Position numbers and translations under genes: made by a program
The notes under the pieces: model-generated
What the model saw: the letters and a program-made list of their open reading frames with translations, nothing else
Databases searched by the model: none
What the model was told of the DNA's origin: nothing
Shown: positions 1,977 through 53,953 of the stretch, in pieces
Layout of the letters: every line of letters begins with the position of its first letter
Position numbering within the stretch: the stretch's first letter is position 1
DNA from: an uncultured bacterium
GTDB lineage: Bacteria > Patescibacteriota > Minisyncoccia > Minisyncoccales > RBG-13-42-11
Reading direction: 5' to 3'
Assembly: GCA_963790795.1 (NCBI GenBank)
Contig: CAWBPO010000001.1
Location: forward strand, 396,073 to 460,072
DNA: 64,000 nucleotides

Positions 1977-1997
1977 TGTTGAGGACTAACCTCAACA
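1977..1997. repeat. Palindromic element copy a: TGTTGAGG-ACTAA-CCTCAACA (intergenic, lysS/serS)
   Basis: Perfect 8+8 bp inverted arms read directly; same arms at four other sites. Confidence 0.9.
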
Positions 1998-2007
1998 AAT
2001 CAAAAAT

Positions 2008-3267
2008 ATGCTTGATATTAAGTTCATTCGCGACAACCCGGAAAAAGTGAAAAAGGCCTGCCAGGAAAAGTGCGTCAAAGCTGATATTGACGAGCTTTTG
2101 GATATTGATAGAAGAAGACTGGAATCATTGCAAGGGATAGAAGATATGAGGGCAAAGAAAAACAAAGCGAACAAGGAAATCCAGAAAGCTGTAAACCAAA
2201 GGGAAAAGAACAAGATTATTCTGGAGATGAAAGAGCTGGACAAGAACAGCGACAGGTTAGACAAAACCTTAAGGGACTTGGAAAAGAAATTAAACAAATT
2301 GATGTGCAGGATTCCCAATATTTGCCTGGACGGAGTTCCTATTGGCGGCGAAAAAGACAGCCTGGTCTTGGAAAAAATCGGGGAAAAACCCAGGTTTGAT
2401 TTTAAGATAAAAGACTATATGGAAATTGGCGAAAGTCTGGGCTTAATTGACATCAAAAGAGCGGCTAAGATAAGCGGAACAAGATTCGGTTTTTTAAAGG
2501 GCGAGGTCGCTTTGATGGAATTCGCTCTGATAAAGTTTGCTTTTGACGTTTTAATAAAAAAAGGGTTTATTCCGGTTATCCCTCCGGTAATGATAAAATC
2601 TGAAATGGCCATGGGTATGGGATTTATCCAGCAGACAGACGATGAAGAAGCATATTATCTTCCGAAAGACGATCTTTATCTTACAGCCACTTCAGAACAG
2701 GCTTTAGGTTCTATGCATTCCGGTGAAATTTTTAAGGAAAAAGACTTGCCCAAAAGATACGCTGGTTTTTCAACTTGTTTCAGGAGGGAGGCTGGCTCCT
2801 ACGGCAAGGATACAAAAGGCATATTCAGGGTTCATCAGTTTGACAAAGTGGAAATGTTCAGCTTTGCCAGACCAGAGGATTCCGAGAAAGAGCACAAGCT
2901 TTTGCTGGAAATCCAAAAAGAGCTGATGGACGAATTAAAGCTTCCTTATCAGGTTGTTAATATTGCTTCCGGAGACTTGGGTCTACCTGCTGCTGCTAAA
3001 TACGATATTGAAACCTGGATTCCTTCCGAGAACCGTTATCGGGAAACACATTCCGCTTCAACCTGCACTGATTTTCAGGCAAGAAGATTGAATATACGTT
3101 TTAAGAGCAAATCCGGAAAATTGAATTTTGTTCACACGCTTAACGGCACTGCCTTTGCCATTGGCAGGATGATTATTGCCATTTTGGAGAATTATCAGCA
3201 GAAAGACGGAAGCGTAAAAGTTCCCGAAGCTTTACAAAAATATACGGGATTTAAGAAAATCGGATAA
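2008..3267 (+). CDS. serS: Serine--tRNA ligase
   Basis: 419 aa; N-terminal coiled-coil arm; TCFRREAGSYGKDTKGIFRVHQFDKVE; GTAFAIGRMIIAILENYQ. Confidence 0.95.
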   Translation: MLDIKFIRDNPEKVKKACQEKCVKADIDELLDIDRRRLESLQGIEDMRAKKNKANKEIQKAVNQREKNKIILEMKELDKNSDRLDKTLRDLEKKLNKLMCRIPNICLDGVPIGGEKDSLVLEKIGEKPRFDFKIKDYMEIGESLGLIDIKRAAKISGTRFGFLKGEVALMEFALIKFAFDVLIKKGFIPVIPPVMIKSEMAMGMGFIQQTDDEEAYYLPKDDLYLTATSEQALGSMHSGEIFKEKDLPKRYAGFSTCFRREAGSYGKDTKGIFRVHQFDKVEMFSFARPEDSEKEHKLLLEIQKELMDELKLPYQVVNIASGDLGLPAAAKYDIETWIPSENRYRETHSASTCTDFQARRLNIRFKSKSGKLNFVHTLNGTAFAIGRMIIAILENYQQKDGSVKVPEALQKYTGFKKIG

Positions 3268-3296
3268 AGAATTGAGAATAAACCTCAACCAATTAA

Positions 3297-3998
3297 ATGA
3301 CAGATATATTGATTATTAGGGGGTGGGGGTCTCGCAGAGAGAACTGGCAGAAATTTATTTCCATATTAGAAGAGCGGGGCTATCGAATTTTCAGTCCTGA
3401 CTTACCAGGATTCGGCAGTACTCCTTCTCCTTGCGATCCTTGGGCAATAGATGATTACGTTGACTGGGTGAAGGATTTTTGCGAAAATAACAATCTTTCG
3501 CAGTTTTTTTTGTTGGGACATTCATTCGGAGGAGGGGTAGCAATAAAATATATTTTAAAATATCCCAAAAGCGTAAAAAAATTAATTTTGGCAGATGTAG
3601 CAATAATAAGAAAAAAAACAAAGAGTAAAGAAGGGCTAAAAAAGAAGGCGAGTTTCCTGAGAAAACTTTCTTTTCTACCATTTTACAACCAATTCAGAAA
3701 ATTATCTTATAAATTAATCTTTAGGAAAAGCGATTATCCTTTTGTTCAGGGAGTGATGAAAGATACTTATCTAAAAATAATAAATGAAGATTTAAGTGGT
3801 CTTTTAGAAAAGATCAAGATTCCAACAATGATTGTGTGGGGAGAAAAAGACGAGTCAACTCCAATCCAAGATGCTTTTTTAATAAAAGAGAAGATTACTG
3901 GATCTGAATTGAAAACATTGCCAAAGATATGCCATAATCCTCATTTGGAAGCGCCGGAAAAATTAGCTGAAATAATTTTGAAGTTTTTGAATAAATAA
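3297..3998 (+). CDS. Alpha/beta-fold hydrolase
   Basis: 233 aa; GHSFGG nucleophile elbow; C-terminal His region CHNPHLE. Confidence 0.7.
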   Translation: MTDILIIRGWGSRRENWQKFISILEERGYRIFSPDLPGFGSTPSPCDPWAIDDYVDWVKDFCENNNLSQFFLLGHSFGGGVAIKYILKYPKSVKKLILADVAIIRKKTKSKEGLKKKASFLRKLSFLPFYNQFRKLSYKLIFRKSDYPFVQGVMKDTYLKIINEDLSGLLEKIKIPTMIVWGEKDESTPIQDAFLIKEKITGSELKTLPKICHNPHLEAPEKLAEIILKFLNK

Positions 3999-3999
3999 T

Positions 4000-5454
4000 A
4001 TGTTTTATTTTTTAAGTTTTTTTTGGTTTGTTAGAACGACAAAAGCGATTTTGTTCTGGTTTTATCTTTGGCAGTTGAAAGAATACCATATTGGTAGGTT
4101 TTTGGACCATTTTCACACTGAAAAAGGGAAAAATATTTTTTTTAACAAATTGAATATTTTTAAAGTATTTTTGCTTTTGCTTTTTCCGCTTTTTCCTGTT
4201 TTGGTATTTTTCATGATTCTTTTTGTATATATCTTTGAATCAATCAAGGTTTTTTTTGATTTTTTAAAGAGAAGATTAAAGAGGCCGGTTCTGACCCAAA
4301 AGACTGTTTTTTTGATACTGATGGGGTTGTTTGTTGAAAGTTTGATTATTTTGCTTTTATTTTCAAACATTGAGAATCTTCGTTCGTTTGCTCTATGGCT
4401 GTTGATTTTTGACATTTTGACTCCTATTTTCACTTCGCTTATTGTTCTTCTTTTCCAGCCTTTTGCTGTTTTGCTGAGGAACCGGATTATTAAAAAAGCG
4501 AAAGAAAAAAGGAAAAGGTTTGAAAACTTGTTGGTTGTCGGCATTACTGGAAGCTACGGTAAAACCTCAACCAAAGAGTTTTTAGCTGACATTCTGTCCC
4601 GGAAATACAAAGTTTTGAAAACAAAAGAGCACCAAAATTCAGAAGTGGGTATCGCTCAATGTATTTTAAATGAATTAGAAGAAGAACATGAGGTATTTGT
4701 TGTGGAAATGGGAGCTTACAACAGGGGCGGGATAAAGTTATTGTGCGATATTGTTAAGCCGAGAATAGGGGTTTTAACCGGAATCAACGAGCAGCACATG
4801 GCCACTTTCGGCTCGCAGGAAAACATTATTAATGGAAAATACGAGCTGATCGAGAGCTTGCCAGAGGATGGTTTAGCTTTTTTTAACGCAAGGGACAAAT
4901 ACTGCTTGGAGCTTTACGATAAAACCAGCCTTAAGAAATTCTTATATGGGAAAGAAGCAAGTTTTCCTGGCCAGGAAAATATTCTTGGAGCTGTGGCTGT
5001 TGCTAAGGAATTGGGAATGTCAGGGGAAGAAATTTCCAAAGTTACAGAAAAGATTGATAAAATTCCCGGCACTCAAATTAAAAAGGGAATTAACGGTTTG
5101 ACTGTTATTGACGCCACTTATTCTGCCAATCCCGACGGCGTTATGGCGAACTTGGAATATTTGAAGAGCTTTTCCGGCAAAAAAGTGATTGTTATGCCTT
5201 GTTTGATTGAACTGGGAAAAGCTTCAAAAGATGTTCACAGAAGAATCGGTCAGAAAATTGGCGAAGTTTGCAATTTGGCTATAATTATAACCAAAGAAAG
5301 ATTTAAAGAAATTAAGGAAGAAGCTGGCGATAAAGCCGTATTTATTGAAAACGCAAAAGATATTTTTGATAAGATTGAAAATTTTTGCAAAGAGGGAGAC
5401 GTAGTCCTTTTGGAAAGCAGGGTGCCAAAGCAATTAATTAAAAGATTAGTATGA
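4000..5454 (+). CDS. murF: UDP-MurNAc-tripeptide--D-Ala-D-Ala ligase (MurF-type Mur ligase) with a hydrophobic N-terminal extension of about 160 aa
   Basis: 484 aa; GITGSYGKTSTKEF P-loop at residue ~181; Mur ligase middle and C-terminal regions follow; residues 1-160 form several hydrophobic helices. Confidence 0.8.
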   Translation: MFYFLSFFWFVRTTKAILFWFYLWQLKEYHIGRFLDHFHTEKGKNIFFNKLNIFKVFLLLLFPLFPVLVFFMILFVYIFESIKVFFDFLKRRLKRPVLTQKTVFLILMGLFVESLIILLLFSNIENLRSFALWLLIFDILTPIFTSLIVLLFQPFAVLLRNRIIKKAKEKRKRFENLLVVGITGSYGKTSTKEFLADILSRKYKVLKTKEHQNSEVGIAQCILNELEEEHEVFVVEMGAYNRGGIKLLCDIVKPRIGVLTGINEQHMATFGSQENIINGKYELIESLPEDGLAFFNARDKYCLELYDKTSLKKFLYGKEASFPGQENILGAVAVAKELGMSGEEISKVTEKIDKIPGTQIKKGINGLTVIDATYSANPDGVMANLEYLKSFSGKKVIVMPCLIELGKASKDVHRRIGQKIGEVCNLAIIITKERFKEIKEEAGDKAVFIENAKDIFDKIENFCKEGDVVLLESRVPKQLIKRLV

Positions 5455-6752
5455 ATTCAATAAAGCCAATATCAATATCTTTATCTCCCAATACGGAAAA
5501 AGACGATATCCTATTAGCTTTTAAATTGCTTTTTCAGCCCTGGCGCTGGAAATTGGTTGAAGACGAACTTCAACAGTTGGAAGATGAGTTTAAAAAGTAT
5601 CTTGGTGTAAAATATGCTGTTTCCTTTAATAGCGGAAGGTCAGCTTTAATGGCCATTTTAAGTTCTTTAAGAACTGTTGAGGATCGACCTCAACAGGCAG
5701 AGGTGTTGCTTCAGGCTTTTACCTGTAATGCATCAGCAAATCCAGTTATCTGGTCTGGGTTAAAGCCAATTTATGTTGATTGCGATGAGAAAACTTTTAA
5801 TATTGATACAGCTGATTTGGAGAGGAAAATCACTTCAAAGAGCAAAGCAGTTATGGTCCAGCATACTTTTGGGTTGCCGGCTAATATGGATGATGTTTCA
5901 GATATTTGCCGGAAAAACAATTTAGTTCTAATTGAAGACTGCGCTCATTCTTTGGGAGCAAGCTACAAAGGAAAGAAGATAGGGACTTTTGGTAAAGCTA
6001 CTTTTTTCAGCTTTTCCCGCGATAAGGTTATTTCTTCTGTTTACGGCGGAATGGCAGTGACTAATGATGATGAATTGGCTGGAAAATTAAGACAATTCCA
6101 GAAGAAAGTCGATTATCCTTCTTGTTGCTGGACTTTTCAGCAATTATTGCATCCTGTTTTGATGAATTGGCTGATTCTGCCGACCTACAAGTTTTTTGGT
6201 AAGTATTTATTGGTATTGTTCCAGTGGTTTCAGGTTTTGTCAAAAGCTGTCCATTGGAAGGAAAAAAGAGGAAAAAGGCCTTGTTATTTTCCGAAAAGAC
6301 TACCCAATGCTTTAGCTGAACTTGCCTTAAACCAATTTAAAAAACTGGAGTCGTTTAATGAGCATCGTCGTGAAATCGCTGATTTCTACTACAATGAATT
6401 AAAGAATACTGGTTTTGAATTGCCTTTAAATCCAGTTGATGCGAAACAAACATTTTTAAGGTTTGCGATAAAACATCCAAAAGCCCATCAGATTATTAAA
6501 TCAGCCTGGCAGAAGAACCTTTTAATAGGGGATTGGTATACGACTCCTATTGCTCCGCATGATACCAGATTGGAGAAAGTGGAATATGTGTTGGGCAGCT
6601 GTCCTAAGGCTGAAAAGCTGGCTAAAGTCGTTTTTAATTTGCCGACTCATATCAATATATCAAAGAAGGAAGCCCAAAAAATAGTGGATTTTTTGAAGAA
6701 ATATGAAAATCAGAGAAGTAAGAACCTGCTTTGCAGAACCTTGATTCTTTAA
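5451..6752 (+). CDS. DegT/DnrJ/EryC1/StrS-family PLP-dependent aminotransferase
   Basis: 433 aa; FFSFSRDKVISS PLP-lysine region; ATGA overlap with murF stop; contains palindrome copy b. Confidence 0.8.
   Translation: MNSIKPISISLSPNTEKDDILLAFKLLFQPWRWKLVEDELQQLEDEFKKYLGVKYAVSFNSGRSALMAILSSLRTVEDRPQQAEVLLQAFTCNASANPVIWSGLKPIYVDCDEKTFNIDTADLERKITSKSKAVMVQHTFGLPANMDDVSDICRKNNLVLIEDCAHSLGASYKGKKIGTFGKATFFSFSRDKVISSVYGGMAVTNDDELAGKLRQFQKKVDYPSCCWTFQQLLHPVLMNWLILPTYKFFGKYLLVLFQWFQVLSKAVHWKEKRGKRPCYFPKRLPNALAELALNQFKKLESFNEHRREIADFYYNELKNTGFELPLNPVDAKQTFLRFAIKHPKAHQIIKSAWQKNLLIGDWYTTPIAPHDTRLEKVEYVLGSCPKAEKLAKVVFNLPTHINISKKEAQKIVDFLKKYENQRSKNLLCRTLIL
5675..5695. repeat. Palindromic element copy b: TGTTGAGG-ATCGA-CCTCAACA, in frame inside DegT gene (encodes VEDRPQQ)
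   Basis: Read directly; 23 nt identical to copy c. Confidence 0.9.
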
Positions 6753-6773
6753 TATATATAAAATTTTAAAATA

Positions 6774-8676: not shown

Positions 8677-8678
8677 GG

Positions 8679-9389: not shown

Positions 9390-9392
9390 TAT

Positions 9393-11773: not shown

Positions 11774-11776
11774 TTT

Positions 11777-19912: not shown

Positions 19913-20404
19913 CTATTTTATAAGGTGTTCCAATACAGCCTCAGCAACAGGAATCCACTTGGGAATCCTGTTTTTTTTGCTTTTGTACTGCTGGGCTGTT
20001 TTCTGGATAGTTATTAGCCGCTTGAACAAGTCTTTAGGCCACTGACTGAGAGCTTTGCCTTTGTTTTGGTAAAGAATTCCAATTGCTTCAGACCATAATT
20101 CAAAATCTTTCTTTTTATGTCCAGAAAGAGGATATTTTTCAAAAAACTTAACAATTTTATTATAAAGTTCATCAATGTTTTGAACAGAATATCTCAATTG
20201 GGTTCCAGTGATATAGTGCAGCCGGCCGCATTCCAAGACATCTTTGACTTTTTTCAGCAAATCCTCCTTATCAACAGAGCCGACAATGACAAACTGCGCT
20301 TTCCAGCAGTAATATGTGGGAGAGTTGGTTCTTTTGTGCTTAACATCTCTGCGGAACTGCAGGTCAAAACAGCCGGTTTCATTGACTATTTTGGTTATAT
20401 TCAT
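19913..20404 (-). CDS. LAGLIDADG-like (single-motif, I-CreI-size) homing-endonuclease-family protein
   Basis: 163 aa; degenerate N-terminal motif ITKIVNETGCF (compare LAGxxDGEGCF); FFEKYPLSGHKKKDFELW resembles the conserved core; 5 nt downstream of the recombinase gene. Confidence 0.5.
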   Translation of the reverse strand: MNITKIVNETGCFDLQFRRDVKHKRTNSPTYYCWKAQFVIVGSVDKEDLLKKVKDVLECGRLHYITGTQLRYSVQNIDELYNKIVKFFEKYPLSGHKKKDFELWSEAIGILYQNKGKALSQWPKDLFKRLITIQKTAQQYKSKKNRIPKWIPVAEAVLEHLIK

Positions 20405-27733: not shown

Positions 27734-28996
27734 TTATACCATCTTTTTAACTTTTGTCAATAGATAAGGAACTTTGTTTTCTTTTTTCGCTTTCTGCAAA
27801 CTCAGCTTTAAAGCGAGCAGACTTTCTTTTTTAGTCCCCACGCATTCAAAAGGCTTCGCTCTCCCCTGCCCTATTAAAGATTTCATTGTTGGTAGTAATC
27901 TTTTGTTTTCAAAAATATCTTTTCCAAAAATCAAAAGCAATTGTTTTTTATTTAAAAACGGATACAGAGTCAGATAAACAAACAAGCATTTCGGGCAGTT
28001 CCCGCACCACCTGACCTGTTTTGCCCCAATTCTCATGCTGGCATTGCAGCTGGAAAAAACTGGAAAATACTGAGGATATTTAATCAGCATTTTGGATATT
28101 TGAAGCTCAGTATATTTTCTTAAAAAACTGAAATAATTTACATTTTTTACCAGATATTTTTTGCAGTATTTTTTGAACATTATTTCAAATTGGGAGCTTT
28201 TTGCCCACTGGTGATTTATTGTTCTGCCAAGATACTTTACGTTTCCATCATTGGCGCTTTTTTCGTTTGAGAAAACAACATTTTTGTAATCAAACAAAAC
28301 AGCGCAAAAAACGCTCAAAAAAGACAAAAGCGCGGTAAAAGGAGTATGGCCGTTCAAGTATCCTTTCTTGTTCAGTTTTAAAAGTTTTTTGTCAATTATC
28401 CTTTTAACGATAATTTGTTTTTTTACGGCTGATACTTTAGCTGCTTTTTTGATCTGCTCGTTGGGGTTTACTAAAAACAAAGCTGTTTTTGATTTTTTAT
28501 TTAAAATCTCAAGAGTTACAATTGAATCCCTGCCTCCGGAAAAAGGCACCAAATACCTGTTTTTAAGCTTTCCGCTGAATGTCTTGTATTTATTCTTGCT
28601 TTCACATTCTATTGTTAGAAAGTTTTTAGATCGCCAGTCAATCTTGTTTTCGTAAAAAAACTGGCCCATGCCCTTAATAATCAAATCTTTCCACCAGCGG
28701 ATTTGCCCTTTATCCAAAAAACCAGCTTTGATGATAATTTTCGGAGAACAGGTTGCTTTCCAGTAAGTCGGAATTTCCATCAATCCTAAATGGAAAATCA
28801 AGTTTTCCAATATGTTGAAGTTAGACTTCAACAGGCTTGAGCGGCTTATATTTTTGATTTTTATTTCCGGTTTGAAATAAATATCAGGTTCGATTTTAAA
28901 ATCAAAAAAAACCTCTAAGTTGTTTCCAGAGATTCTGTAAGAATATTTCTCAAAAACAAACTTTGGATATTTTTTTATTAATTCTTGGAGTTTCAT
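27734..28996 (-). CDS. PP-loop (SGGxDS) ATP-pyrophosphatase-fold protein; candidate MurL-type UDP-MurNAc-L-Ala-L-Glu epimerase
   Basis: 420 aa; LVPFSGGRDSIVT PP-loop; C-terminal CGNCPKC; sits between mraY and murD. Confidence 0.5.
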   Translation of the reverse strand: MKLQELIKKYPKFVFEKYSYRISGNNLEVFFDFKIEPDIYFKPEIKIKNISRSSLLKSNFNILENLIFHLGLMEIPTYWKATCSPKIIIKAGFLDKGQIRWWKDLIIKGMGQFFYENKIDWRSKNFLTIECESKNKYKTFSGKLKNRYLVPFSGGRDSIVTLEILNKKSKTALFLVNPNEQIKKAAKVSAVKKQIIVKRIIDKKLLKLNKKGYLNGHTPFTALLSFLSVFCAVLFDYKNVVFSNEKSANDGNVKYLGRTINHQWAKSSQFEIMFKKYCKKYLVKNVNYFSFLRKYTELQISKMLIKYPQYFPVFSSCNASMRIGAKQVRWCGNCPKCLFVYLTLYPFLNKKQLLLIFGKDIFENKRLLPTMKSLIGQGRAKPFECVGTKKESLLALKLSLQKAKKENKVPYLLTKVKKMV

Positions 28997-36341: not shown

Positions 36342-37652
36342 TCAAGTTTTGAATTTTGAAGCCAACTGATATATGTCTCCAGCACCCATTATTATTAAAA
36401 CGTCAATTTCCTCAATATTGGCTTTAATATAATCAAACAGCTTTACTTTTGGCAGATAAACCACGTTTTTTCTTTTTATTTCTTTCACTAATTTTGCAGA
36501 AGAAACTTTCTTTTTGATGTTTTTCTCTTCCCTGCCTGCCACGTCAAAAACATCCGTAATAATTATCTTGTCCGCCGATGATTGCCTGAAAGCTTCTGTG
36601 AAATCTTTAAATAAATAATATGTTCTCTGATATTGGTGCGGCTGGAAAATGCACCAGATTTTGCTTTTCGGGAATTTCTCACGAGCTGCTTTTAATGTCG
36701 CTTTTATCTCGGTTGGATGGTGTGCATAGTCAGAGATAATTTTCAATTTACAATTTCCAATTTTCGAATTTTTTTCCTCAAAGCGCCGCCAAGACCCTTT
36801 ATACATTGAAAGGGCTTTAAAAGAGACTTTATCCGATATTTTCAAAACCCTGGCAACGGTCAAAGCGGCCAAAGCATTAGAAACATTGTGTTCTCCCGGC
36901 ACTTTGAGAATTTTCTTCAGCTTTTTCGCTTCGGGTTGCTTTAATGAATAATACTTTTTTGAGGCAAAACAAGCTATTTTTTTAATGTTTTTATCGTCTT
37001 TATTAGCAATGAGCAGTCCGTCTTTTGGCAAATGTAAAACATATTTTTTAAAAGCTTTAATAATGTTTCTAAGATTCTTGTAGTAATCCAGATGGTCTTT
37101 TTCAATATTTGTCAGAACTATTATTTTCGGCCAGTAATTCAAAAAAGAAGCAAAGTGTTCGTCAGCTTCAATAACCAGATATTTGCTTTTGCCGACCCGG
37201 CAATTGCCATTCTTGAATTCTTTCATTTTCGTGCCGACAATTATAGTCGGATCAAGACCAGCTTTAACCAATAACAACCCAATCATACAGGTAACGGTGC
37301 TTTTTCCGTGAGTTCCTGAAATGGCAATAGTATAATGTTGTTTCGTAAGTTCGCCCAGCGCCTGAGGATAACTCAAACATTTAATCCCCGCTCTTCTTGC
37401 GGCTTTTAATTCTAAATTGCTCTCTTTTACCGCTGGACTATACACCACCAAATCTATTTGTTGAGGATCGACCTCAACAGGCTTACCGATGCGTATTTTT
37501 GCGCGATTATTTTTTAGGGCGTCGGTAATCTCCGACCTAACTAAATCTGAACCGCTAACTTTGTGGCCTTTTTTCAAATAATATCTGGCTAGAGCGGAAA
37601 CACCGATTCCTCCGATGCCGATAAAATGGATTTTTAATTTTTTAGCGGGCAT
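36342..37652 (-). CDS. murC: UDP-N-acetylmuramate--L-alanine ligase MurC
   Basis: 436 aa; FIGIGGIGVSALA, ISGTHGKSTVTCM P-loop; contains palindrome copy c. Confidence 0.93.
   Translation of the reverse strand: MPAKKLKIHFIGIGGIGVSALARYYLKKGHKVSGSDLVRSEITDALKNNRAKIRIGKPVEVDPQQIDLVVYSPAVKESNLELKAARRAGIKCLSYPQALGELTKQHYTIAISGTHGKSTVTCMIGLLLVKAGLDPTIIVGTKMKEFKNGNCRVGKSKYLVIEADEHFASFLNYWPKIIVLTNIEKDHLDYYKNLRNIIKAFKKYVLHLPKDGLLIANKDDKNIKKIACFASKKYYSLKQPEAKKLKKILKVPGEHNVSNALAALTVARVLKISDKVSFKALSMYKGSWRRFEEKNSKIGNCKLKIISDYAHHPTEIKATLKAAREKFPKSKIWCIFQPHQYQRTYYLFKDFTEAFRQSSADKIIITDVFDVAGREEKNIKKKVSSAKLVKEIKRKNVVYLPKVKLFDYIKANIEEIDVLIIMGAGDIYQLASKFKT
37459..37479. repeat. Palindromic element copy c: TGTTGAGG-ATCGA-CCTCAACA, in frame inside murC (encodes VEVDPQQ on minus strand)
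   Basis: Read directly. Confidence 0.9.
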
Positions 37653-41338: not shown

Positions 41339-41969
41339 ATGGTAAATTTAGTTTTCGCTGTCATATCCCCTCACCCGCCGATAATATTGCCATCGGTCGG
41401 CTCAAAGGAAGACAGAGAAAAAGTTAAAAAAACCATAGATAGCTTATATTCTTTGCGAAAGAAGTTTGTTGAGGTTAGATCCTCAACAGATTGTTATTTC
41501 TTCTCCTCATCCTGATTGGGGATTTGAAGTGCCTTTGTTTTTTCTAGCTAATGATTTTAAAGGAAAAATTGATAAAGTTTTAACCGGTTTGGAACCGCTA
41601 GAATTCTATTTCAAAGAAGGCAAAAGAATATATAATAATTTGGAAAAAGACAAAAAATACGCCATAATTGCTTCTGGAGACCTTTCTCATTGTTTAAAAG
41701 AAGACGGACCTTATGGATTAAACCCACAAGGTCCAAAGTTTGATGAAGAACTGATTGAATCTTTAAAAAAGAAAGATGTTGAAAACATTCTAAAACTGGA
41801 TGACAAATACCCTGAAGCCGGAGAGTGCGGTTTAAGGTCCATTTGTTTTTTATTGGGTATGCTGGAAGCCCATTCGACAAGCTCAGGGCAAGATTGGCAG
41901 CCAGAGATTTTATCGTATGAATCCCCTTTTGGCGTTGGATATTTAGTGGTAAATTTTAAATTAATATGA
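41339..41969 (+). pseudogene. Class III extradiol dioxygenase subunit B-like / Memo-like protein, frame broken inside palindrome copy d
   Basis: ATG 41339 gives MVNLVFAVISPHPPIILPSVGS...KKFVEV, then the frame shifts. Removing one nt of the 6-nt loop restores ...VEVRPQQIVISSPHPDWGFEVP...SGDLSHCL...SYESPFGVGY. Confidence 0.65.
41467..41488. repeat. Palindromic element copy d: TGTTGAGG-TTAGAT-CCTCAACA (22-nt variant)
   Basis: Read directly; loop is one nt longer than copy e (TTAGA). Confidence 0.9.
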
Positions 41970-47515: not shown

Positions 47516-47560
47516 ATTTTTTTAAATTATTAATTAATCGTTCGACTAGACGATAAATTA

Positions 47561-48785: not shown

Positions 48786-48786
48786 A

Positions 48787-49494
48787 TTATTCTTTAATTT
48801 CTTGAGTCATTTTTGATTTGTCGGTTAAAACATCCTCAACAATCTCTCCGTCTTTAATGGCAATTATGCGTCTGGCTTTGCTTGCGATATATCTTTCATG
48901 GGTAATTAAAATAATCGTCCGGCCCTGCTTGTTCAAATTTTGAAAAGTTTCCAGGACGATTTCACCTGTTTTGCTGTCAAGATTTCCGGTCGGCTCATCG
49001 GCAAAAATTAAAGAAGGATTGTTTACAAGAGCCCTGGCAATGGCCACTCTTTGCATTTGTCCTCCGGAAAGCTGGTTGGAAAGATGGTGAAAGCAGGATT
49101 CGTCCAATCCCGCATCTTTAAGCGCTATTTTTGCCCGTTTTTCCCGTTCTTCTTTTGGAACACCCGCATAAATAAGGGGCAGAACAACATTGCGAATGAC
49201 CGATGTGCGTCGTAGTAAATTGAACGACTGAAAAACGAACCCTATTTTGTTTTTACGGATGTCAGCCAATTCGTCGTCTGATAAACGGGAAACGTCTTCT
49301 CCGTTAAAGAAATATTGGCCGCTGGTCGGAGTATCCAAACAACCTAAAATATGCATTAAGGTTGATTTTCCGGAACCCGAAGGCCCGATGATTGCCACGA
49401 ATTCGCCACTCTTGATTTTGAAAGAAACGTTTTTTAAGGCCTTAGTTTCAACATTTTCACTTTTGTATGTTTTGCTGATGTTTGAAACATTCAA
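48787..49494 (-). CDS. MacB/LolD-type ABC transporter ATP-binding protein
   Basis: 235 aa; Walker [10 protein letters not shown], signature LSGGQMQR, Walker B LIFADEPT. Confidence 0.92.
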
Positions 49495-49520
49495 TCATAG
49501 TTTTTAACACATCGTTCTCA

Positions 49521-51149
49521 TCATTGCACCATTCTCATTATTTCCATTGAACCGCCGCCTGACGGCATAGCTCCGTCAGTTTTTGAAGAATTAGAAGAGT
49601 TGGAAGAACTATTAGAAACTGTTTGAGTAACAACCTTGTCGCCTTCCGATAAGCCGCTGACAACTTCCGTATTCGTATCGTTTGAAATTCCAACCTCAAT
49701 TTGCTGGAGAGAAATGGTATTGTCTTCTTTCATAATTTGCACGTATTGAATGCCATTTTGCGTTTTTATCGCGGAGTTCGATATTGAAAGAACGTCTTGC
49801 TTCATTTCGGTAATTATAACCACGGAAACGCTCATACCCGATTTAATTCGTTCGTCCTCAGTATCAATGGTAATTTTGGCATTATATGTTACAACCCCCT
49901 GGCTTACCGTGCCGACAGCGTCAACTTCCGCGACCTGGCCGACAATTGTCAGGTCTTCAATTGCGTCAAAAGTAATAGTTGCTTTCTGCCCCACTTTCAC
50001 TTTTGCAGCGTCTACTTCATTGAGAGTGATTTCAGCTATCTTTTGTTTGGTAATAAGGTTTATTAGGGCTGTGCTGACTGAAACCGAGTCGCCATACTCA
50101 ATATTTACTTCTATGACAAGGCCGTCAAAGGGAGAATAGATATAGTGCTGGGCCAGGCTTGTTTTTGCGTCATCTAAGGCGTATTGGCATTGTTTTACTT
50201 TAAGATTTTGCGTTTCAATGTCTAAATTAGATTGAGAAAGCTCTTCTTTTGCATCGCTTATAGCTTTCTTGGCAGAAGAAAGGTCGCTGACAAGACTGAT
50301 AAGCGAAGAAGTATATGTTTCCAGCAGAGCGAACTGGTCGTCGGTTGAGTCTGTTGGAATCGGCGGAGTTATCTCTTCTTCTTCAATAAGTGATTGATAA
50401 TTTTGGACGAGATTGTAACTTTGGCGGACAAATTCCAAAATCGTCTTAGTAAAATCATAGGTTTCATTTAGAACGATTTCTATCTGGTCACAGGAAGAAT
50501 TTTGATTAAGAGCAGAATAATCGGTTTGAATTGTTTTTAATTGTTTTTTAGAAGCTAGATCCAAATATTTGTCTTCGGCGCCGCCCTGCCAATAAGACAG
50601 CTCATAGGCAGCATTGTAGCCGCGAATTATTCGTATGTAATAATCAATATCACTTTCATCGCCGCTATAGCTGCTTTCCGTGAACATTGCTTCCAAGTTT
50701 GGAATAATTGGCAGCAAGTCTTTGAAAGTGTTTGTTAAATCGTTTAATCCGTCTTCGCAAGATTCAGCAAGCGATTCGCCTGTTGCTTCTTTGGTGTTTT
50801 TTAGTGTTAGTTCAGCGTCTGCCAGATTAATCTCTGCGTCTTTTACCGCTTTTTCCGCGTCCCTTGTATCAAGCCGGGCAATAAGTGTGCCGGTTTTTAC
50901 TTCCTGGTTTTCTTTTACGCCGACATAGACCACATCGCCTGAAACCTCTGGTTTTACATCTATTTCATCCAAAGAGGCCATCTGGCCGCTTCCTGAAACA
51001 GACACAATAATAGTGCCTTTTTCAACTGCGGCAGTTACATAAGAAGCTTTACTTTCTTTATTAAACAAGGCCTTATAACCAAAATAACCTCCTAAAATTA
51101 GGATTAATAAAAGGAAAACAATTACCGGTTTTTTCTTAAAAAATTTCAT
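49521..51149 (-). CDS. HlyD/MacA-family periplasmic adaptor (long variant)
   Basis: Start set at MKFFKKKPVIVFLLL; TM anchor, biotinyl-lipoyl-like and coiled-coil regions, beta-barrel C-terminus; upstream of ABC genes. Confidence 0.75.
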   Translation of the reverse strand: MKFFKKKPVIVFLLLILILGGYFGYKALFNKESKASYVTAAVEKGTIIVSVSGSGQMASLDEIDVKPEVSGDVVYVGVKENQEVKTGTLIARLDTRDAEKAVKDAEINLADAELTLKNTKEATGESLAESCEDGLNDLTNTFKDLLPIIPNLEAMFTESSYSGDESDIDYYIRIIRGYNAAYELSYWQGGAEDKYLDLASKKQLKTIQTDYSALNQNSSCDQIEIVLNETYDFTKTILEFVRQSYNLVQNYQSLIEEEEITPPIPTDSTDDQFALLETYTSSLISLVSDLSSAKKAISDAKEELSQSNLDIETQNLKVKQCQYALDDAKTSLAQHYIYSPFDGLVIEVNIEYGDSVSVSTALINLITKQKIAEITLNEVDAAKVKVGQKATITFDAIEDLTIVGQVAEVDAVGTVSQGVVTYNAKITIDTEDERIKSGMSVSVVIITEMKQDVLSISNSAIKTQNGIQYVQIMKEDNTISLQQIEVGISNDTNTEVVSGLSEGDKVVTQTVSNSSSNSSNSSKTDGAMPSGGGSMEIMRMVQ

Positions 51150-51231
51150 ATTCCTAATTATTATTACAACCAAATGGTTTTTTTATTTCACCAATGAAAA
51201 ATCGCCCTGAGGGGCGCTTTTTCAAAAATGT

Positions 51232-51984
51232 TTACTTAAATTGGTTGAACATATGCGGTGGCAAAACCTGGGGAGGGGCTGGAAATAATTCTAAATTATC
51301 ATCAATCTTTCTGATATTAAGAGCGTTGATAGTACTGTCAGTCTTTTCCCCGAATACCACGACTTCATCCCTTTCTTGAACTTCAAAATCAGGCGCTGTT
51401 TTTGTCTGGGAGCCAATAATTATGGTCAGTTTTTGAGTTTGAGGAGTTTCCAAAATAAATCCGTTTTCTGTTATTTCCGAAACAACTCCTCTGTGCACGT
51501 TGTGGAATTCAGGCATGCCGAAACCTCGGTACATCGGGCCAGCCAAAGGCAGTTTTCCTTCTCTGGCTTTTAAGAACAATTTTGAATGGAAAGTAGTTTG
51601 GTCAATAATAAAGCCGCCCACAAACACGATTAAAACAATAGCCAGTAAAGAATAGAGAACAGGCTTGCGGTATACGAGAGAGAAACGCTTCATAAATATT
51701 TCCAAAGCGGCAATCAAAAGCAGAGCTGCTACAATCAAAATCCAGGGTAAAGAGCCCAAGAATATGCCAAAGCCATGGAAGCCGAAATTAGGCAAAAACC
51801 ACAAGCCACTAGCTCTTAAAGTAAAAGAAATAAAGCTTATTAAAAATAAGATGAAAATACCGACAACTATACTTCCCAAGATAACCAGAACGGTTTTCAA
51901 AATAAAGTATAGCTTCGGCTTTATCTTAATTTCGCCGCTTTTTATCTTATTTAATACTTTATCTTTTATTGAATGGTTATTCAT
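51232..51984 (-). CDS. Polytopic membrane protein, candidate anti-sigma factor
   Basis: 250 aa; overlaps the stop of the ECF sigma gene by 8 nt; several TM helices plus extracytoplasmic C-terminal domain. Confidence 0.45.
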   Translation of the reverse strand: MNNHSIKDKVLNKIKSGEIKIKPKLYFILKTVLVILGSIVVGIFILFLISFISFTLRASGLWFLPNFGFHGFGIFLGSLPWILIVAALLLIAALEIFMKRFSLVYRKPVLYSLLAIVLIVFVGGFIIDQTTFHSKLFLKAREGKLPLAGPMYRGFGMPEFHNVHRGVVSEITENGFILETPQTQKLTIIIGSQTKTAPDFEVQERDEVVVFGEKTDSTINALNIRKIDDNLELFPAPPQVLPPHMFNQFK

Positions 51985-52552
51985 AAATATATCCTGTTTT
52001 TTTAAAAATAGATTTCATTATCTTTTTTGCCCGTTTTATCCTTACGCCAACGGTTGAAATCGGAATTTGTATTATATCGGCAATCTCCTTGTAATTTAAA
52101 TCTTCAAAATAATAAAGGATAAGCGGCTCGCGGTATTTAAATTCCAGCTTATCAAGGCATTTGTCAATTGTTTTCTGCATGTTTTGACGGTCAATCTGCT
52201 GTTCAAGATTATTGTTGTAACTGTATTGGGGCAAAAAGACATCTAGGTCGAATAAGGGCAATGTTTTTGTATTTTTCTTTTTAAGGGTGTTGATTAATTC
52301 ATTGTGGGCGATGCGGTAAAGCCATGGTGAAAATCTCCTTTTTACATCAAAGCTTTGGATGTTCTTGTATGCCTTTATGAAAATATCTTGGAGAACGTCG
52401 CTTATATCTTCGGGGCCAGAAAGAAATTTTCTTGCATAGCGTTTGATTTTATCCTCGTATCTGTTAATCAAACTGCCGAAAAGTTCAGTCTTGCCCAACT
52501 GGACGAGCCGTACAATTTCTTCATCTTTTTTTTGAGATATGTCTTCCTGCAT
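51977..52552 (-). CDS. ECF-type RNA polymerase sigma factor (sigma-70 family)
   Basis: 191 aa; region 2 (DVLQDIFIKAYKNIQSF...SPWLYRIAHNELIN) and region 4 (YKEIADIIQIPISTVGVRIKRAKKIM). Confidence 0.88.
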   Translation of the reverse strand: MQEDISQKKDEEIVRLVQLGKTELFGSLINRYEDKIKRYARKFLSGPEDISDVLQDIFIKAYKNIQSFDVKRRFSPWLYRIAHNELINTLKKKNTKTLPLFDLDVFLPQYSYNNNLEQQIDRQNMQKTIDKCLDKLEFKYREPLILYYFEDLNYKEIADIIQIPISTVGVRIKRAKKIMKSIFKKTGYIYE

Positions 52553-52576
52553 ATTATTACAAACAATAACGTTGTT

Positions 52577-53203
52577 TTATTTCATGCTTTTAATGTTTTT
52601 TACCAGTTCGGGGAATGAAGATTGGTCAAAATGGCCTCTGTTTTTAAACGCTATGGCTTTTGCTTCAGGCAGGACTTTTTCATATTTTTTGAAGTCGGCA
52701 AACGGAACAACTTTATCGTCTTTACTGTGGTATAAAAAAATACTGCCGCCTTGTTTTTGGAGTTTTTTTAAGTTTTTTGGCAAGATAAAATCAGCTAGAG
52801 AATAGTTCGCGTCTTTTTCATTATAGGAGGCACTAACCAATAATGTTGCCAATATTTTTTTGGGGAATTTGTTTTCAGACAGATATTTGGCCAAAAATGT
52901 AGCGCCAAGAGAGTGTCCCACCAATATGACATTGTTCTTTAAAAAAGGAAGCAGTTTGTCAAAGATGATTTTCCATTCCTTGTATTTTGCATTCATCGGA
53001 TTTGGCATTCTGGGATAAATGACTTCAAATCCTTTTCCCAGCTTTATGGCTAAAGTTTCCTTCCATCTTTTTGTTTTCAGTTTGTTAATCTCAATCTTAT
53101 GGCTTTTTAAAAAAGCTAAATAATCTTTGTAGCTTTTAAAGGTATCGCCGCCGTGAATAACGACAACTTGTTTTTTCATATTTATATTCATACATTTTAA
53201 CAA
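52577..53203 (-). CDS. Serine hydrolase (alpha/beta fold, YdeN/RBBP9-like); start may be ATG at 53179
   Basis: LVGHSLGA nucleophile elbow; VVVIHGG start of fold. Confidence 0.6.
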   Translation of the reverse strand: MLKCMNINMKKQVVVIHGGDTFKSYKDYLAFLKSHKIEINKLKTKRWKETLAIKLGKGFEVIYPRMPNPMNAKYKEWKIIFDKLLPFLKNNVILVGHSLGATFLAKYLSENKFPKKILATLLVSASYNEKDANYSLADFILPKNLKKLQKQGGSIFLYHSKDDKVVPFADFKKYEKVLPEAKAIAFKNRGHFDQSSFPELVKNIKSMK

Positions 53204-53223
53204 AAAATCGCTACATTGGCGAC
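53194..53223 (-). repeat. 30-nt intergenic module copy 1 (hairpin + T6 + extended -10)
   Basis: Minus strand GTCGCCAATGTAGCGATTTTTTGTTAAAAT. Confidence 0.8.
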
Positions 53224-53321
53224 TTGTTGAGATGAAACCTTTTAACTCTTGACAACTCTTTATGTCTTGCTATAATTATAATAGTTTTACAGTACGTCCC
53301 GGCGCAAGCTGGGGCGGTTTT

Positions 53322-53846
53322 TTATTCTCGCGTTATTTTATCTTTAATATCCTCTAAATAAACATAATCAGACGCCTCTAATTTTATTTCCCAAGAGATA
53401 GTTTTTCGAGAAGAGAAAATTATTACTCTTTTACCCAAATTTTTTAATTTCTTAACCAAATATTGAAAGTCACTGTCTCCAGTAAATAGAATTATCTCAT
53501 TAATTTCTTTCCTCTCAAGAAGAATATCTGTAGTTATTTCTACGTCGCAATTTGATTTATACATCTCAGAATAATCATAAAGTTTTTTTAGGGGATGCTT
53601 GTTATTAATTTTAATTACTTTTATCGGTTTGGTAATGGGAATGATTTCCACATTGTCCAAATATCTCAAAAAACTTGTCATCTTTTCGTCGTTAGATTTG
53701 ACTCCAGTATAATACCGTATCTCCAGAATATCCCATTTTTCCTGGAGATAATCCTTTATTTTCTTCCAATTGAAAAACCACCCTAATTTCTTTTGAGCAT
53801 AAAACATATTTGCTCCATCAATATACACTTTTGCTTTGGCTTTCAT
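53322..53846 (-). CDS. NYN-domain (LabA-like) protein
   Basis: 174 aa; VYIDGANMFY start, FTGDSDFQYLVKKLKNLGKRV typical of the NYN/LabA PIN-like fold. Confidence 0.7.
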   Translation of the reverse strand: MKAKAKVYIDGANMFYAQKKLGWFFNWKKIKDYLQEKWDILEIRYYTGVKSNDEKMTSFLRYLDNVEIIPITKPIKVIKINNKHPLKKLYDYSEMYKSNCDVEITTDILLERKEINEIILFTGDSDFQYLVKKLKNLGKRVIIFSSRKTISWEIKLEASDYVYLEDIKDKITRE

Positions 53847-53901
53847 AATTTTCCCAATTTTGGTCTAAATTTTGATTATTTTACTATCTCTATTCCTGAT
53901 T

Positions 53902-53931
53902 TATTTTAACAAAAAATCGCCCTAATAGCGA
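53902..53931 (-). repeat. 30-nt intergenic module copy 2
   Basis: Minus strand GTCGCTATTAGGGCGATTTTTTGTTAAAAT; directly abuts palindrome copy e. Confidence 0.8.
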
Positions 53932-53932
53932 C

Positions 53933-53953
53933 CTGTTGAGGTTAGACCTCAAC
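53933..53953. repeat. Palindromic element copy e: TGTTGAGG-TTAGA-CCTCAACA (intergenic)
   Basis: Read directly. Confidence 0.9.

Follow-up and report, generated by a model that had tools for sequence, protein, structure and literature searches.

A short hairpin repeat in a Patescibacteria genome is probably a REP element and brackets a RAYT-type transposase gene in related genomes

Repeat copies in the window

The stretch of DNA that was analysed (the window, 64 kb) carries copies of a short palindrome both within and between its genes (Table 1). The exact form, TGTTGAGG-N5-CCTCAACA, is present four times, and the 8-bp arms are identical across the exact-arm copies. A preliminary description had reported five exact copies with the same 8-bp arms; the identity of the arms and the copies at 1977, 5675 and 37459 were confirmed, but the fourth copy starts at 53934 and not at 53933, and the copy at 41467 is 22 nt long with a 6-nt loop. 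The copies at 28813 and 5555, which that description did not include, are arm variants (G-to-A/C-to-T). Overall, the window holds six copies with perfectly paired arms, one variant with 7/8 paired positions and one decayed copy, where 0 are expected. The decayed copy had been noted before as a degenerate unit following a module of ~30 nt, and is indeed present near 53216-53240. The exact motif was found 0 times in 100 dinucleotide-preserving shuffles of the window, and the number expected from shuffles was 0 to 0.2, against four exact copies, one with a 6-nt loop and two arm variants; as proposed earlier, the copies are not an effect of base composition.

Table 1. Repeat copies in the window, and transposase genes bracketed by the repeat in other genomes (positions in L050, L107 and L174 are those of the respective locus).
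Locus	Feature	Position	Strand	Sequence	Context	Peptide or repeat positions
Window	exact copy	1977-1997		TGTTGAGG-ACTAA-CCTCAACA	intergenic, lysS/serS	
Window	degenerate A-type copy, 7/8 arm pairs	5555-5575	+	GGTTGAAG-ACGAA-CTTCAACA (GGTTGAAGACGAACTTCAACA)	DegT-family aminotransferase gene	VEDELQQ
Window	exact copy	5675-5695	+	TGTTGAGG-ATCGA-CCTCAACA	DegT-family gene (5451-6752), in frame	VEDRPQQ
Window	A-type copy, 9-bp stem, 3-nt loop	28813-28833	-	TGTTGAAG-TTAGA-CTTCAACA	inside ORF 27734-28996 (-)	LLKSNFN
Window	exact copy	37459-37479	-		murC (36342-37652, -), in frame	VEVDPQQ
Window	22-nt copy	41467-41488	+	TGTTGAGG-TTAGAT-CCTCAACA	at frameshift splitting LigB/Memo-like gene	
Window	decayed copy	53216-53240		TTGTTGAGATGAAACC...	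intergenic, NYN-domain gene (53322-53846, -) / - strand gene (52577-53203)	
Window	exact copy	53934-53954		TGTTGAGG-TTAGA-CCTCAACA	intergenic, near rarA/mgsA	
L050	transposase gene	6793-7512				copies at 6691, 6759, 7520, 7566
L107	transposase gene	1172-1885				copies at 1143, 1887
L174	transposase gene	6001-6717				copies at 5910, 6721, and one in frame inside the gene

The hairpin unit measures 21-23 nt, a size within the 20-40 nt usual for REPs, with a stem of 8-9 bp and a loop of 3-5 nt (6 nt in the copy at 41467). Folding of the hairpins as single-stranded DNA yielded energies of -5.9 to -8.6 kcal/mol (z scores -4.3 to -7.0). Perfect hairpins with a stem of at least 8 bp number 16 in the window (about 7 in shuffled sequence), and 6/16 belong to the repeat family, which has a density of about 1 per 10 kb. 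The length of 21 nt equals seven codons. In either orientation two of the three frames are free of stops and read VExx(P/L)QQ or LL(R/K)xx(L/F)N, the third frame containing TGT TGA. Three copies are intergenic, each a short way past the 3' end of an ORF, and five are located within gene sequence.

The copy at 1977 is separated from the lysS stop codon by 3 nt and from the serS start codon by 10 nt; as single-stranded DNA it forms a hairpin of -7.3 kcal/mol (z = -5.0). The lysS-serS spacer in the closest syntenic relative (L169/L170) is 1 nt, so that the window has an extra segment of 30 nt that includes the repeat. This indel is the sole clean extra segment among the copies of the window, and zero copies were found in 20 kb of syntenic DNA of the relative. 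The copy at 53934 lies 13 nt downstream of the stop codon of rarA/mgsA, which is a - strand gene; after it, read on the same strand, come a terminator-like hairpin and T-run (53934-53914). A module of ~30 nt on the + strand precedes both this copy and the decayed copy; read on the - strand, the module at the decayed copy likewise contains a terminator-like hairpin and T-run (53225-53205).

Copies within genes

Read on the + strand, the exact copies in DegT and murC share a run of 23 identical nt (TGTTGAGGATCGACCTCAACAGG), and this identity and the two peptides had been described correctly. In the DegT-family gene the arms of the 5675 copy reach 9 bp over 5674-5696, and R-T-V-E-D-R-P-Q-Q-A stands in place of the native G-L-K-K-N-D. 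The orthologue of L169, which is 81% identical, is without this copy, and the site is net +12 nt in the window. Compared with orthologues, the protein is 4 residues longer here and 1 residue longer at the 5555 site. The segment around 5555 is hypervariable among 120 orthologues; the one of L045 carries a perfect repeat (FVEVKPQQN) at the same protein position, and REP-like peptides are seen in some others (P0101, TVEARPQQL; P0046, SVEIRLQQ).

The copy at 41467 lies exactly where the LigB/Memo-like gene changes frame (N-terminal part from 41339, C-terminal part up to 41969) and is therefore not an in-frame copy; of the three in-frame copies claimed previously, those in DegT and MurC stand. Removal of one loop base (41480) restores a LigB protein of 209 aa, colinear with the intact 206-aa proteins of L171 and L176, with VEVRPQQ at the positions of KDENPEK and a net length change at the repeat of 0. 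The copy at 28813 uses the other stop-free frame and is situated in a variable segment of an ORF for which no Pfam match was found; its length change is 0 relative to 50 homologues. It matches the MurC copy of L172 at 20/21 bases, and its arms are those of the copies flanking and inside the L174 transposase gene.

The MurC of the window is one residue shorter than repeat-free orthologues, and comparison with solved MurC structures and with 120 orthologues showed no insertion at the repeat. In 11/120 orthologues, the window included, these murC codons consist of repeat-derived sequence, and the 11 are polyphyletic. MurC orthologues with the VExxPQQ peptide at this position have the DNA palindrome too (L171), or a decayed or variant form of it (L172 and L173); the refuting condition named at the outset, the peptide in orthologues that lack the palindrome, was thus not encountered in MurC. 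The repeat lies within a mosaic patch of ~100 nt. Between the genes of L171 and L176, identity is 87% outside the patch and 57% within it; between those of L178 and L172 it reaches 99% in the patch, with 85% for the remainder of the gene. Judged from these sequence comparisons, the patch looks exchanged between lineages via recombination, which would place a length-neutral repeat at the same codons in unrelated lineages. The proposal that the units are seven-codon insertions fails for most copies (MurC -1, LigB 0, ORF 27734-28996 0, DegT +4 and +1 residues).

A transposase gene bracketed by the repeat

The same 21-mer brackets, within 2-70 nt, a gene for an HUH/Y1 transposase of 237 aa at three independent loci (L050, L107 and L174; Table 1), and the RAYT gene of L174/L175 is flanked by the window-type repeat as in the other two. 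The 53934 copy of the window matches the copies flanking the L050 gene at 21/21 bases. In 9/120 homologues of the transposase the repeat is found in frame within the gene itself, at residue 57. No RAYT homologue was detected in the 64-kb window by tblastn or profile search, so the association between repeat and RAYT is known from other genomes only.

The transposase scored 27.3 bits against Pfam Y1_Tnp (PF01797; cut-off 23). Its sole NCBIfam match was NF047646 (REP_Tyr_transpos), with 23.8 and 18.1 bits against an equivalog cut-off of 80; by these scores the protein belongs to a distant clade and is not a REP_Tyr_transpos equivalog. The HUH motif NHFHLLL and the tyrosine motif YIQVKNP are conserved in 120 homologues. 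An AlphaFold model (mean pLDDT 86) had as its best PDB match in Foldseek 4ER8, the E. coli RAYT with a REP hairpin (E = 6.5e-4, target-normalised TM 0.58), followed by the IS608, ISDra2 and IS200 transposases. Most transposase protein clusters occur on 1-3 contigs each (8-kb blocks), a weak hint at the single copy per genome that is one of the traits defining RAYTs.

Hairpins of the same architecture but different sequence stand beside the gene in 52 complete metagenomic homologues. Perfect hairpins within 120 nt of these genes amount to 5.7 per kb, against 0.48 per kb in the rest of the same loci, and in 20/52 homologues an identical inner stem is present on both sides of the gene. The consensus common to these sister hairpins is nnTGTnGAnGTCAGACnTCnACAnn. 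The tag GTTG lies inside the stem of TGTTGAGG, where the sister hairpins have GTAG, GTGG, GTGA or GTGC. The TGTTGAGG arms were seen at 0/55 metagenomic RAYT loci (L114-L168), and the specific pairing of repeat and RAYT rests on the three loci above.

Outside the window the motif was scanned in one genome per species. The exact motif recurs in Patescibacteria MAGs (at least 17 copies in CAJVXN01, at least 11 in JAKLGH01 and 8 in CALQZP01, in sampled blocks), and most other taxa had one match each. The 8-bp arms are common to divergent lineages labelled Paceibacterota, Nomurabacteria, Yanofskybacteria and Saccharibacteria, with loop sequences that are genome-specific. At other Patescibacteria loci about 45/51 copies are in stretches without a long ORF.

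Comparison with known repeats

The system resembles the REP/RAYT pairs (REPtrons) of Proteobacteria, such as E. coli REP/TnpA-REP (4ER8) and Pseudomonas REPIN-RAYT, in several respects: a short hairpin repeat is dispersed, copies directly bracket an HUH/Y1 transposase gene, the hairpin sequence is specific to the transposase lineage, the intergenic copies come just after ORF 3' ends, inverted doublets occur (547/587 and 1710/1751 in the relative L024), and the enzyme has its best structural match in 4ER8. It differs in its host, in an enzyme of about 237 aa that scores far below the NCBIfam equivalog cut-off, in the perfect 21-mer with GTTG instead of GTAG as tag, inside the stem, and in that about half of the window copies are in protein-coding sequence, which is unusual for REPs, these being predominantly extragenic. 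Patescibacteria are not listed in the 2013 REP survey of Di Nocera et al. (PMC3733652), and no description of REP/RAYT in this group was found in the literature that we looked at. That survey describes a location just downstream of ORF 3' ends for REPs, and the published families include GTRG, GTMG and GTGG tag variants, GTTG not being among those listed (PMC3733652). Intragenic GTAG and CGTC REPs were reported as well, Opitutus terrae and Rickettsia conorii being examples; such repeats are translated as part of genes whose function is known, tag variants such as GTGG occur, and recB of Xanthomonas carries REPs at about one site of the gene across related species (Di Nocera et al. 2013, PMC3733652). 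Those intragenic REPs are described as insertions, often dimers adding 20-30 residues (PMC3733652), whereas the single seven-codon units of the window mostly stand in place of native codons and leave protein length nearly or wholly unchanged, and the murC unit appears to travel within a recombined patch.

The palindromic elements of Rickettsia (RPE) are similar in that palindromic repeats are tolerated in frame in essential genes of a reduced genome, and to this extent, a palindromic repeat read as protein, the earlier comparison holds; its insertion part does not. RPE-1 elements are about 100-150 bp long and add a peptide segment, and no dedicated transposase is known for RPE. The present unit is 21 nt, mostly length-neutral (-1 to +4 residues at the five sites) and linked to RAYT, and does not belong to that class. 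With IS200/IS605 elements the system shares the Y1 HUH transposase fold and the recognition, here predicted, of sub-terminal hairpins on single-stranded DNA. However, IS200/IS605 elements end in two hairpins that are imperfect and differ from each other, and they occur as whole elements in multiple copies; in the present case the gene has the same perfect hairpin on both sides, and the hairpin alone appears to be dispersed.

Origin of the repeat

Since the same sequence brackets a RAYT gene in related genomes, the palindrome can be assigned to a known kind of element. We consider it probable, at roughly 80%, that it is a REP element, that is, a hairpin repeat which a cognate HUH/Y1 RAYT is predicted to recognise, and probably to mobilise, as single-stranded DNA. 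A REP/MITE-like element had been the first of the alternatives named at the outset, and the evidence favours it.

The hairpins could instead be RNA elements (mRNA 3'-end stabilisers, attenuators or translational pause sites), selected whatever their origin. E. coli REPs stabilise upstream mRNA, both intergenic copies (1977 and 53934) come right after stop codons of co-directional genes, and terminator-like hairpins directly follow one of these and the decayed copy. Moreover, synonymous sites in the murC arms of the window and L171 are 6/6 identical, while gene-wide 51% of the codons for the same amino acid are identical. An RNA function leaves the dispersal and the bracketing of RAYT genes unexplained, relative to the mRNA the DegT and MurC copies have their loops in opposite orientations, and no Rfam family matched. 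We regard this explanation as unlikely; an RNA role is a possible secondary use and not a rival origin.

Very unlikely, in our view, is a signal for DNA uptake or recombination drive in naturally competent Patescibacteria, in which DNA with the motif would be preferentially taken up or recombined and motif alleles would spread by molecular drive. The murC patch does act like a spreading allele, given the polyphyly of the repeat-bearing orthologues and the identities in and outside the patch (57% and 87% for L171/L176, 99% and 85% for L178/L172), and the same arms are shared by deeply divergent lineages. In Neisseria, uptake sequences are likewise present in coding regions, and form inverted pairs at terminators. 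Like DUS (Neisseria), USS (Pasteurellaceae) and HIP1 (cyanobacteria), which spread through recombination, the repeat is a short over-represented motif, also coding, and may spread in that way. But those are single oriented words at about 1 per kb, and the present density is roughly ten times lower. The lone half-site GTTGAGG occurs as 6 singles in the window against about 5.6 expected, i.e. at chance level, so that the motif exists only as the complete hairpin; this argues against membership of the DUS/USS class and against the uptake alternative raised before. The genome-specific loops also speak against it, and uptake gives no reason for a motif that brackets RAYT genes at 2-70 nt or for differing hairpins of the same design at homologous genes.

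An operator or other duplex site for a dimeric host protein, be it a nucleoid or segregation protein (parS, Noc or MatP type) or the LAGLIDADG protein encoded at 19913-20404, appears highly improbable. The perfect palindrome with its TGTT...AACA outline is reminiscent of parS, intragenic copies are typical of parS and similar sites, and the ORF encodes a true LAGLIDADG_1 protein. Nevertheless, the two arms change in step, GAGG/CCTC becoming GAAG/CTTC, in the window as well as in other genomes. In the MurC copy of L172 this paired change costs a Pro-to-Leu substitution, which points to selection for base pairing within the strand. The loops differ in length and sequence but pairing of the arms is maintained, and between RAYT lineages the stems differ wholly with the architecture kept; the differences are paired changes in 9/9 pairs, a count that is partly circular because the sequences were picked as perfect hairpins. 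The suggested link to the LAGLIDADG protein finds no physical or phyletic tie, and a different enzyme family adjoins the motif elsewhere. The target of a homing endonuclease is the intron- or intein-less allele of its host gene, usually one site per genome; here there are at least seven unrelated motif sites, none of them adjoining the ORF. Finally, chance or protein-driven convergence on a favoured VExxPQQ loop peptide is effectively refuted by the three intergenic copies and the reading of the same DNA in two frames: native MurC and LigB loops do have Pro followed by charged residues (LPKD, NPEK) at the position of PQQ, but VExx[PL]Q[QH] is found 4 to 5 times in each set of 120 orthologues, where 0.02 would be expected, and the shuffles gave 0 copies.

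For a REP element, the genome from which the window derives would encode, or would once have encoded, a RAYT-type enzyme beyond these 64 kb. The enzyme would bind the folded hairpin on single-stranded DNA, nick adjacent to it and copy or move it. Copies would persist downstream of genes, beside terminators, and inside variable surface segments of proteins; in murC, the repeat-bearing patch of ~100 nt may have been passed among lineages by homologous recombination. Simple insertion does not account for the intragenic copies, a fact that Y1 transposition by itself leaves unexplained.

A more far-reaching reading, which we think doubtful, is that the repeat is a selfish in-frame coding cassette, and that repeat-bearing patches of essential genes are driven among Patescibacteria lineages by homing-like or biased gene conversion. 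The drive would come from RAYT nicking at the hairpin, or from biased uptake, followed by recombination. The murC patch of L178 and L172 is its clearest example. If this reading were true, the in-frame copy at residue 57 of the transposase gene would be a self-regulatory or self-targeting site.

Copies of the repeat in the window

The pattern TGTTGAGG-N5-CCTCAACA was found by pattern search in four exact copies in the window and in none of 100 dinucleotide-preserving shuffles of the same DNA, which bears out the preliminary description in that the excess of palindromes goes beyond composition; its coordinates were also correct, except for the last copy, which was off by one. Further copies were obtained with a relaxed pattern (loop allowed to vary, third arm position R/Y) and by allowing three mismatches (see the table). 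The half-site GTTGAGG occurs six times outside the palindromes, against 5.6 expected; because lone half-sites are at chance level, the enrichment in the window is limited to the complete hairpin. The window contains 16 perfect hairpins with stems of 8 bp or more; six are this repeat, and the rest are at the shuffled background. Every copy folds as single-stranded DNA into the expected hairpin, with energies of −5.9 to −8.6 kcal/mol. The copies in the DegT-family and murC genes are indeed identical over 23 nt, and the readings VEDRPQQ (DegT) and VEVDPQQ (MurC) hold. A lone perfect hairpin of another sequence, TGTAATCCC-ATGTGTA-GGGATTACA with a TGT...ACA outline, lies at 57075-57099 within a 968-aa ORF (55486-58392, − strand) and might be a copy of another repeat family.

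Repeat copies and related features in the window and in loci from other genomes or metagenomes (L-numbers). "Exact" denotes TGTTGAGG-N5-CCTCAACA; A-type denotes the variant with a paired change in both arms; P-numbers are protein homologues.
Feature	Position	Sequence or reading	Compared with	Net change
lysS/serS spacer copy	1977	exact	L169/L170 (DegT 81% identical), spacer 1 nt	+30 nt
DegT site 1	5555	degenerate, GGTTGAAGACGAACTTCAACA (3-mismatch search)	L169	+3 nt (+1 aa)
DegT site 2	5675	exact	L169 and 119 other orthologues	+12 nt (+4 aa)
ORF 27734-28996	28813-28833	A-type, TGTTGAAG-TTAGA-CTTCAACA, both arms changed together (relaxed pattern)	50 homologues	0
murC	37459	exact, TGTTGAGG-TCGAT-CCTCAACA	120 orthologues	−1 aa
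LigB-like gene	41467-41488	6-nt loop, 22 nt in all (relaxed pattern)	LigB of L171 and L176, base 41480 removed	0
rarA copy	53934	exact		
murC site, L171		TGTTGAGG-CTCAT-CCTCAACA, perfect		
murC site, L172 and L178		CGTTGAAGTTAGACTTCAACA, A-type; right-arm change Pro to Leu		
murC site, L173		right arm decayed		
Repeat doublets/nested copies, L024	547-607, 1710-1771			
Repeat doublets/nested copies, L050	7520-7586			
Repeat doublets/nested copies, L106	440-490			
RAYT-like ORF, L050	between copies 6691 + 6759 and 7520 + 7566	239 aa		
Second-type Y1 transposase, L027	7825-7517 (−), first tblastn match	hairpin TGTGGAGGGCGGCCCTCCACA downstream		
LL[KR]xx[FL]N in transposase homologues	residue 57	P0132, P0157, P0166, P0169, P0178, P0183, P0192, P0195, P0218		

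Gene context and intergenic copies

The G+C content of the window is about 38%, and coding sequence makes up about 86% of it. Searches against Pfam confirmed lysS, serS, the DegT-family aminotransferase, murC, an AIR-synthase-like gene, the LigB/Memo-like gene, an NYN-domain gene, rarA/mgsA and a LAGLIDADG_1 protein. The two intact intergenic copies each come directly after the stop codon of a co-directional gene, lysS (at 3 nt) or rarA (at 13 nt), and the 20 kb of syntenic DNA in the closest relative (L169/L170) contains no repeat copy. On the − strand, a terminator-like hairpin with a T-run directly follows both the rarA copy and a decayed copy at about 53216-53240, and it is this structure that had been noticed earlier as a "30-nt module". 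Such terminator-adjacent copies may additionally influence mRNA 3' ends. The tRNA-Lys was the sole match in an Rfam search of the window, with no RNA family for the repeat.

The spacer below the NYN-domain gene holds a promoter that fits the sigma-70 consensus perfectly (TTGACA, 16 nt, TG-TATAAT; 12/12 matches) at 53249-53276 (+). Some 20 nt further on there is a strong hairpin of terminator type, with a T-run (53295-53316, +), and the two together could specify, within 53249-53320, a very short transcript of some 40-50 nt. The LAGLIDADG_1 protein is encoded by a free-standing single-motif ORF at 19913-20404 (−). At this site (about 19.7-20.4 kb) the gene orientation switches from + to − and the cumulative GC skew peaks, so that it looks like a terminus-type convergence point. 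The speculation that this protein acts on the palindrome found no link.

Copies inside genes

The preliminary description had regarded three intragenic copies as candidate in-frame insertions of seven residues, comparable but unrelated to Rickettsia palindromic elements (RPE). Alignments of DegT and MurC (solved structures and 120 orthologues each) contradict a clean 7-codon insertion, and so do those of LigB and ORF 27734-28996: the net changes are small or zero (+4 and +1 aa in DegT, −1 in MurC, 0 in LigB), and MurC shows no insertion relative to solved structures. At DegT site 2 native codons have been replaced by the repeat. DegT site 1 is hypervariable across the 120 orthologues, several of which encode repeat-like peptides, and the copy of L045 is perfect. 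In ORF 27734-28996 the repeat is read LLKSNFN within a variable segment.

The LigB copy is out of frame, contrary to what had been thought: ...KKFVEV is read upstream and another frame downstream (...DPQQIVISSPHPDW), the gene being split by one surplus base in the repeat loop (TTAGAT, not TTAGA). When repaired, the gene encodes VEVRPQQ at the positions of KDENPEK. The split could reflect a pseudogene, a recoded gene or a mistake in the assembly. The gene itself (41339-41969) has an AmmeMemoRadiSam-type neighbourhood in L171 and L176. Native loops (murC of L176, LigB of L171) read CCN GAA AAG (P-E-K) where the repeat has CCT CAA CA[AG] (P-Q-Q), a match that could reflect microhomology, a preferred landing site or coincidence.

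Probable recombination at the murC site

Repeat-derived sequence occurs at the same codons in 11 of 120 murC orthologues, the window counted. The arm codons of the window and L171 are identical at 6/6 positions, compared with 51% of same-amino-acid codons gene-wide (p ~0.02). A single ancestral insertion into murC is rejected, since the repeat-bearing orthologues fall into at least six separate groups in 30/30 neighbour-joining bootstraps with the site masked; their nearest neighbours, at distances of 0.10-0.15, are without the repeat.

The region 37400-37520 of the window was compared with L171, L172, L173, L176, L177 and L178. Orthologues with and without the repeat are similar outside a patch of about 100 nt and dissimilar inside it (L171 vs L176, 87% outside and 57% inside; L178 vs L177, 89% and 57%). 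Among repeat-bearing orthologues the identity rises inside the patch, from 69-71% to 77% for the pairs formed by the window, L171 and L173, and from 85% to 99% for the two A-type sequences L178 and L172. This pattern bears the signature of homologous recombination with exchange of a mosaic segment, which would account for the common site, the common length difference of −1 and the polyphyly of repeat-bearing murC. It is also a hint of short-patch recombination between divergent Patescibacteria lineages.

Transposase genes bracketed by the repeat

In three loci the repeat brackets a gene for a REP-associated tyrosine transposase (RAYT). The L050 ORF contains MPNHFHLLI and YLAAYIMVKN and matches Pfam Y1_Tnp with 27.3 bits (cut-off 23); its flanking copies and the rarA copy of the window agree at 21/21 bases. 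The L107 homologue, 44% identical to the L050 protein, is flanked by copies at 8 nt on the upstream side and 2 nt on the downstream side, and that of L174 (P0169) is bracketed by the A-type 21-mer TGTTGAAGTCTGACTTCAACA. The L174 gene (6001-6717) carries its own 21-mer in frame at 6170-6190, read LLKSDFN, and LL[KR]xx[FL]N is found at this place in 9/120 transposase homologues (0.36 expected from shuffling). The hairpin inside the transposase gene could serve self-regulation, be a self-targeting site or occupy a permissive loop.

A profile of the RAYT-like proteins retrieved 1843 relatives; the few with a named source are annotated "transposase" or "hypothetical protein" in MAGs labelled Patescibacteria, Paceibacterota and Omnitrophota. 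None of 55 metagenomic RAYT loci has TGTTGAGG arms; most have other perfect hairpins of 21-25 nt at 0-60 nt from the gene, often identical on both sides. Across the 52 of these loci examined for hairpins, there are 5.7 per kb within 120 nt of the gene versus 0.48 per kb elsewhere, and the same inner stem is present on both sides in 20. The hairpins beside RAYT homologues have the common consensus nnTGTnGAnGTCAGACnTCnACAnn, and many start with the classical GTAG-type tag (TGTAG or TGTGG). Double changes are seen at each of the nine stem pairs, a count that is partly circular as the sequences were selected as perfect hairpins; the informative part is the common position, length and loop together with lineage-specific stems. 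The lineages of hairpin and enzyme are matched.

The enzyme is divergent. REP_Tyr_transpos was the sole NCBIfam match, at 23.8 bits far below the cut-off of 80, and sequence similarity to solved transposases is marginal. The best PDB match of an AlphaFold model (mean pLDDT 86) is 4ER8, a REP-associated tyrosine transposase bound to a REP hairpin, with the IS608, ISDra2 and IS200 transposases ranking after it. A more distant type of Y1 transposase, with a ...YIHKNP motif, lies near the 3' end of L027 (Yanofskybacteria MAG, − strand). Because the genome of L027 holds TGTTGAGG copies as well as the TGTGGAGGGCGGCCCTCCACA hairpin, one genome may host two enzyme/hairpin pairs.

Distribution in other genomes

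When one genome per prokaryotic species (596 Gb) was scanned, at least 113 stretches with the motif came up. Most taxa have one match each among the matches listed, which is about chance for 16 specified bases in 596 Gb. Certain Patescibacteria MAGs are rich in the motif, with at least 17 copies in CAJVXN01 and at least 11 in JAKLGH01; among the matches listed, CALQZP01 has eight, seven of them within one 8-kb block, and the motif recurs in several MAGs labelled Yanofskybacteria, Saccharibacteria and Paceibacterota. The loops are genome-specific (CTAAG/CTTAG, TCAAA/TTTGA, TTAGA/TCAGA, TTTAA, ATCGA). L024, L050 and L106 show doublets of the repeat, either inverted with a spacing of about 20 nt (REPIN-like) or direct with a period of 46 nt, as well as nested partial copies; the window has no such arrangement. 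In Enterococcus (L020, L034, L044, L059, L071, L081, L102) the same 16 arm bases surround an AAAAA-type loop with conserved flanks, once per genome across many species among the matches listed; these are probably copies of a single orthologous hairpin, a terminator or regulatory element that has no relation to the repeat of Patescibacteria.

Nature of the element

The motif is a dispersed, hairpin-only repeat with genome-specific loops that brackets RAYT genes. We consider it very probable (roughly 0.8) that it represents a REP family whose cognate RAYTs form a divergent clade. As neither tblastn nor a profile search of the six-frame translation detected a RAYT in the 64-kb window, the link to an enzyme in the window's own genome is one that we infer. 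A site of the parS/Noc/MatP type was considered for the TGTT...AACA outline, the intragenic copies and the switch of strand and GC skew near 20 kb, and was dropped because the motif brackets RAYT genes and both arms change together. A DNA uptake signal is made unlikely by the chance level of half-sites.

For the REP family, by analogy with IS200/IS605 and TnpA-REP, the enzyme would bind the folded hairpin on single-stranded DNA, nick beside it and propagate it; enzymes of the Y1 type use the lagging-strand template. The unit of 21 nt leaves two of three frames free of stops in both orientations (the third reads TGT TGA), and we propose that copies in tolerant loops therefore survive selection.

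REP/RAYT systems, including GTAG-tag variants, are already well described: REPs have been documented within genes whose function is known (Di Nocera et al. 2013, PMC3733652), and a single-copy RAYT with its cognate repeat is known from Bertels and Rainey. Patescibacteria are absent from the phyla of the Di Nocera survey (PMC3733652), and our literature search found no paper tying REP/RAYT to Patescibacteria or describing the motif as a bacterial repeat. The system is new in degree, not in kind, namely in its host phylum, in the divergent clade of 237-aa enzymes, in a perfect hairpin of seven codons whose stem contains a GTTG tag, in the large proportion of copies that fall in coding sequence (the genome being about 86% coding), in the copy borne by the transposase gene itself and in the recombining murC patch.

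The peptides VExxPQQ and LLKxxFN, and frameshifts at such sites, are to be read as repeat-derived and not as conserved protein motifs. The co-varying hairpin/enzyme pairs could be used to study how Y1 transposases read hairpins. Overall, the host range of REP/RAYT is widened to Patescibacteria, whose genomes measure about 1 Mb and contain hardly any intergenic DNA, and in which a stop-free hairpin of seven codons can be carried in essential genes such as murC and even in the gene of its own transposase.
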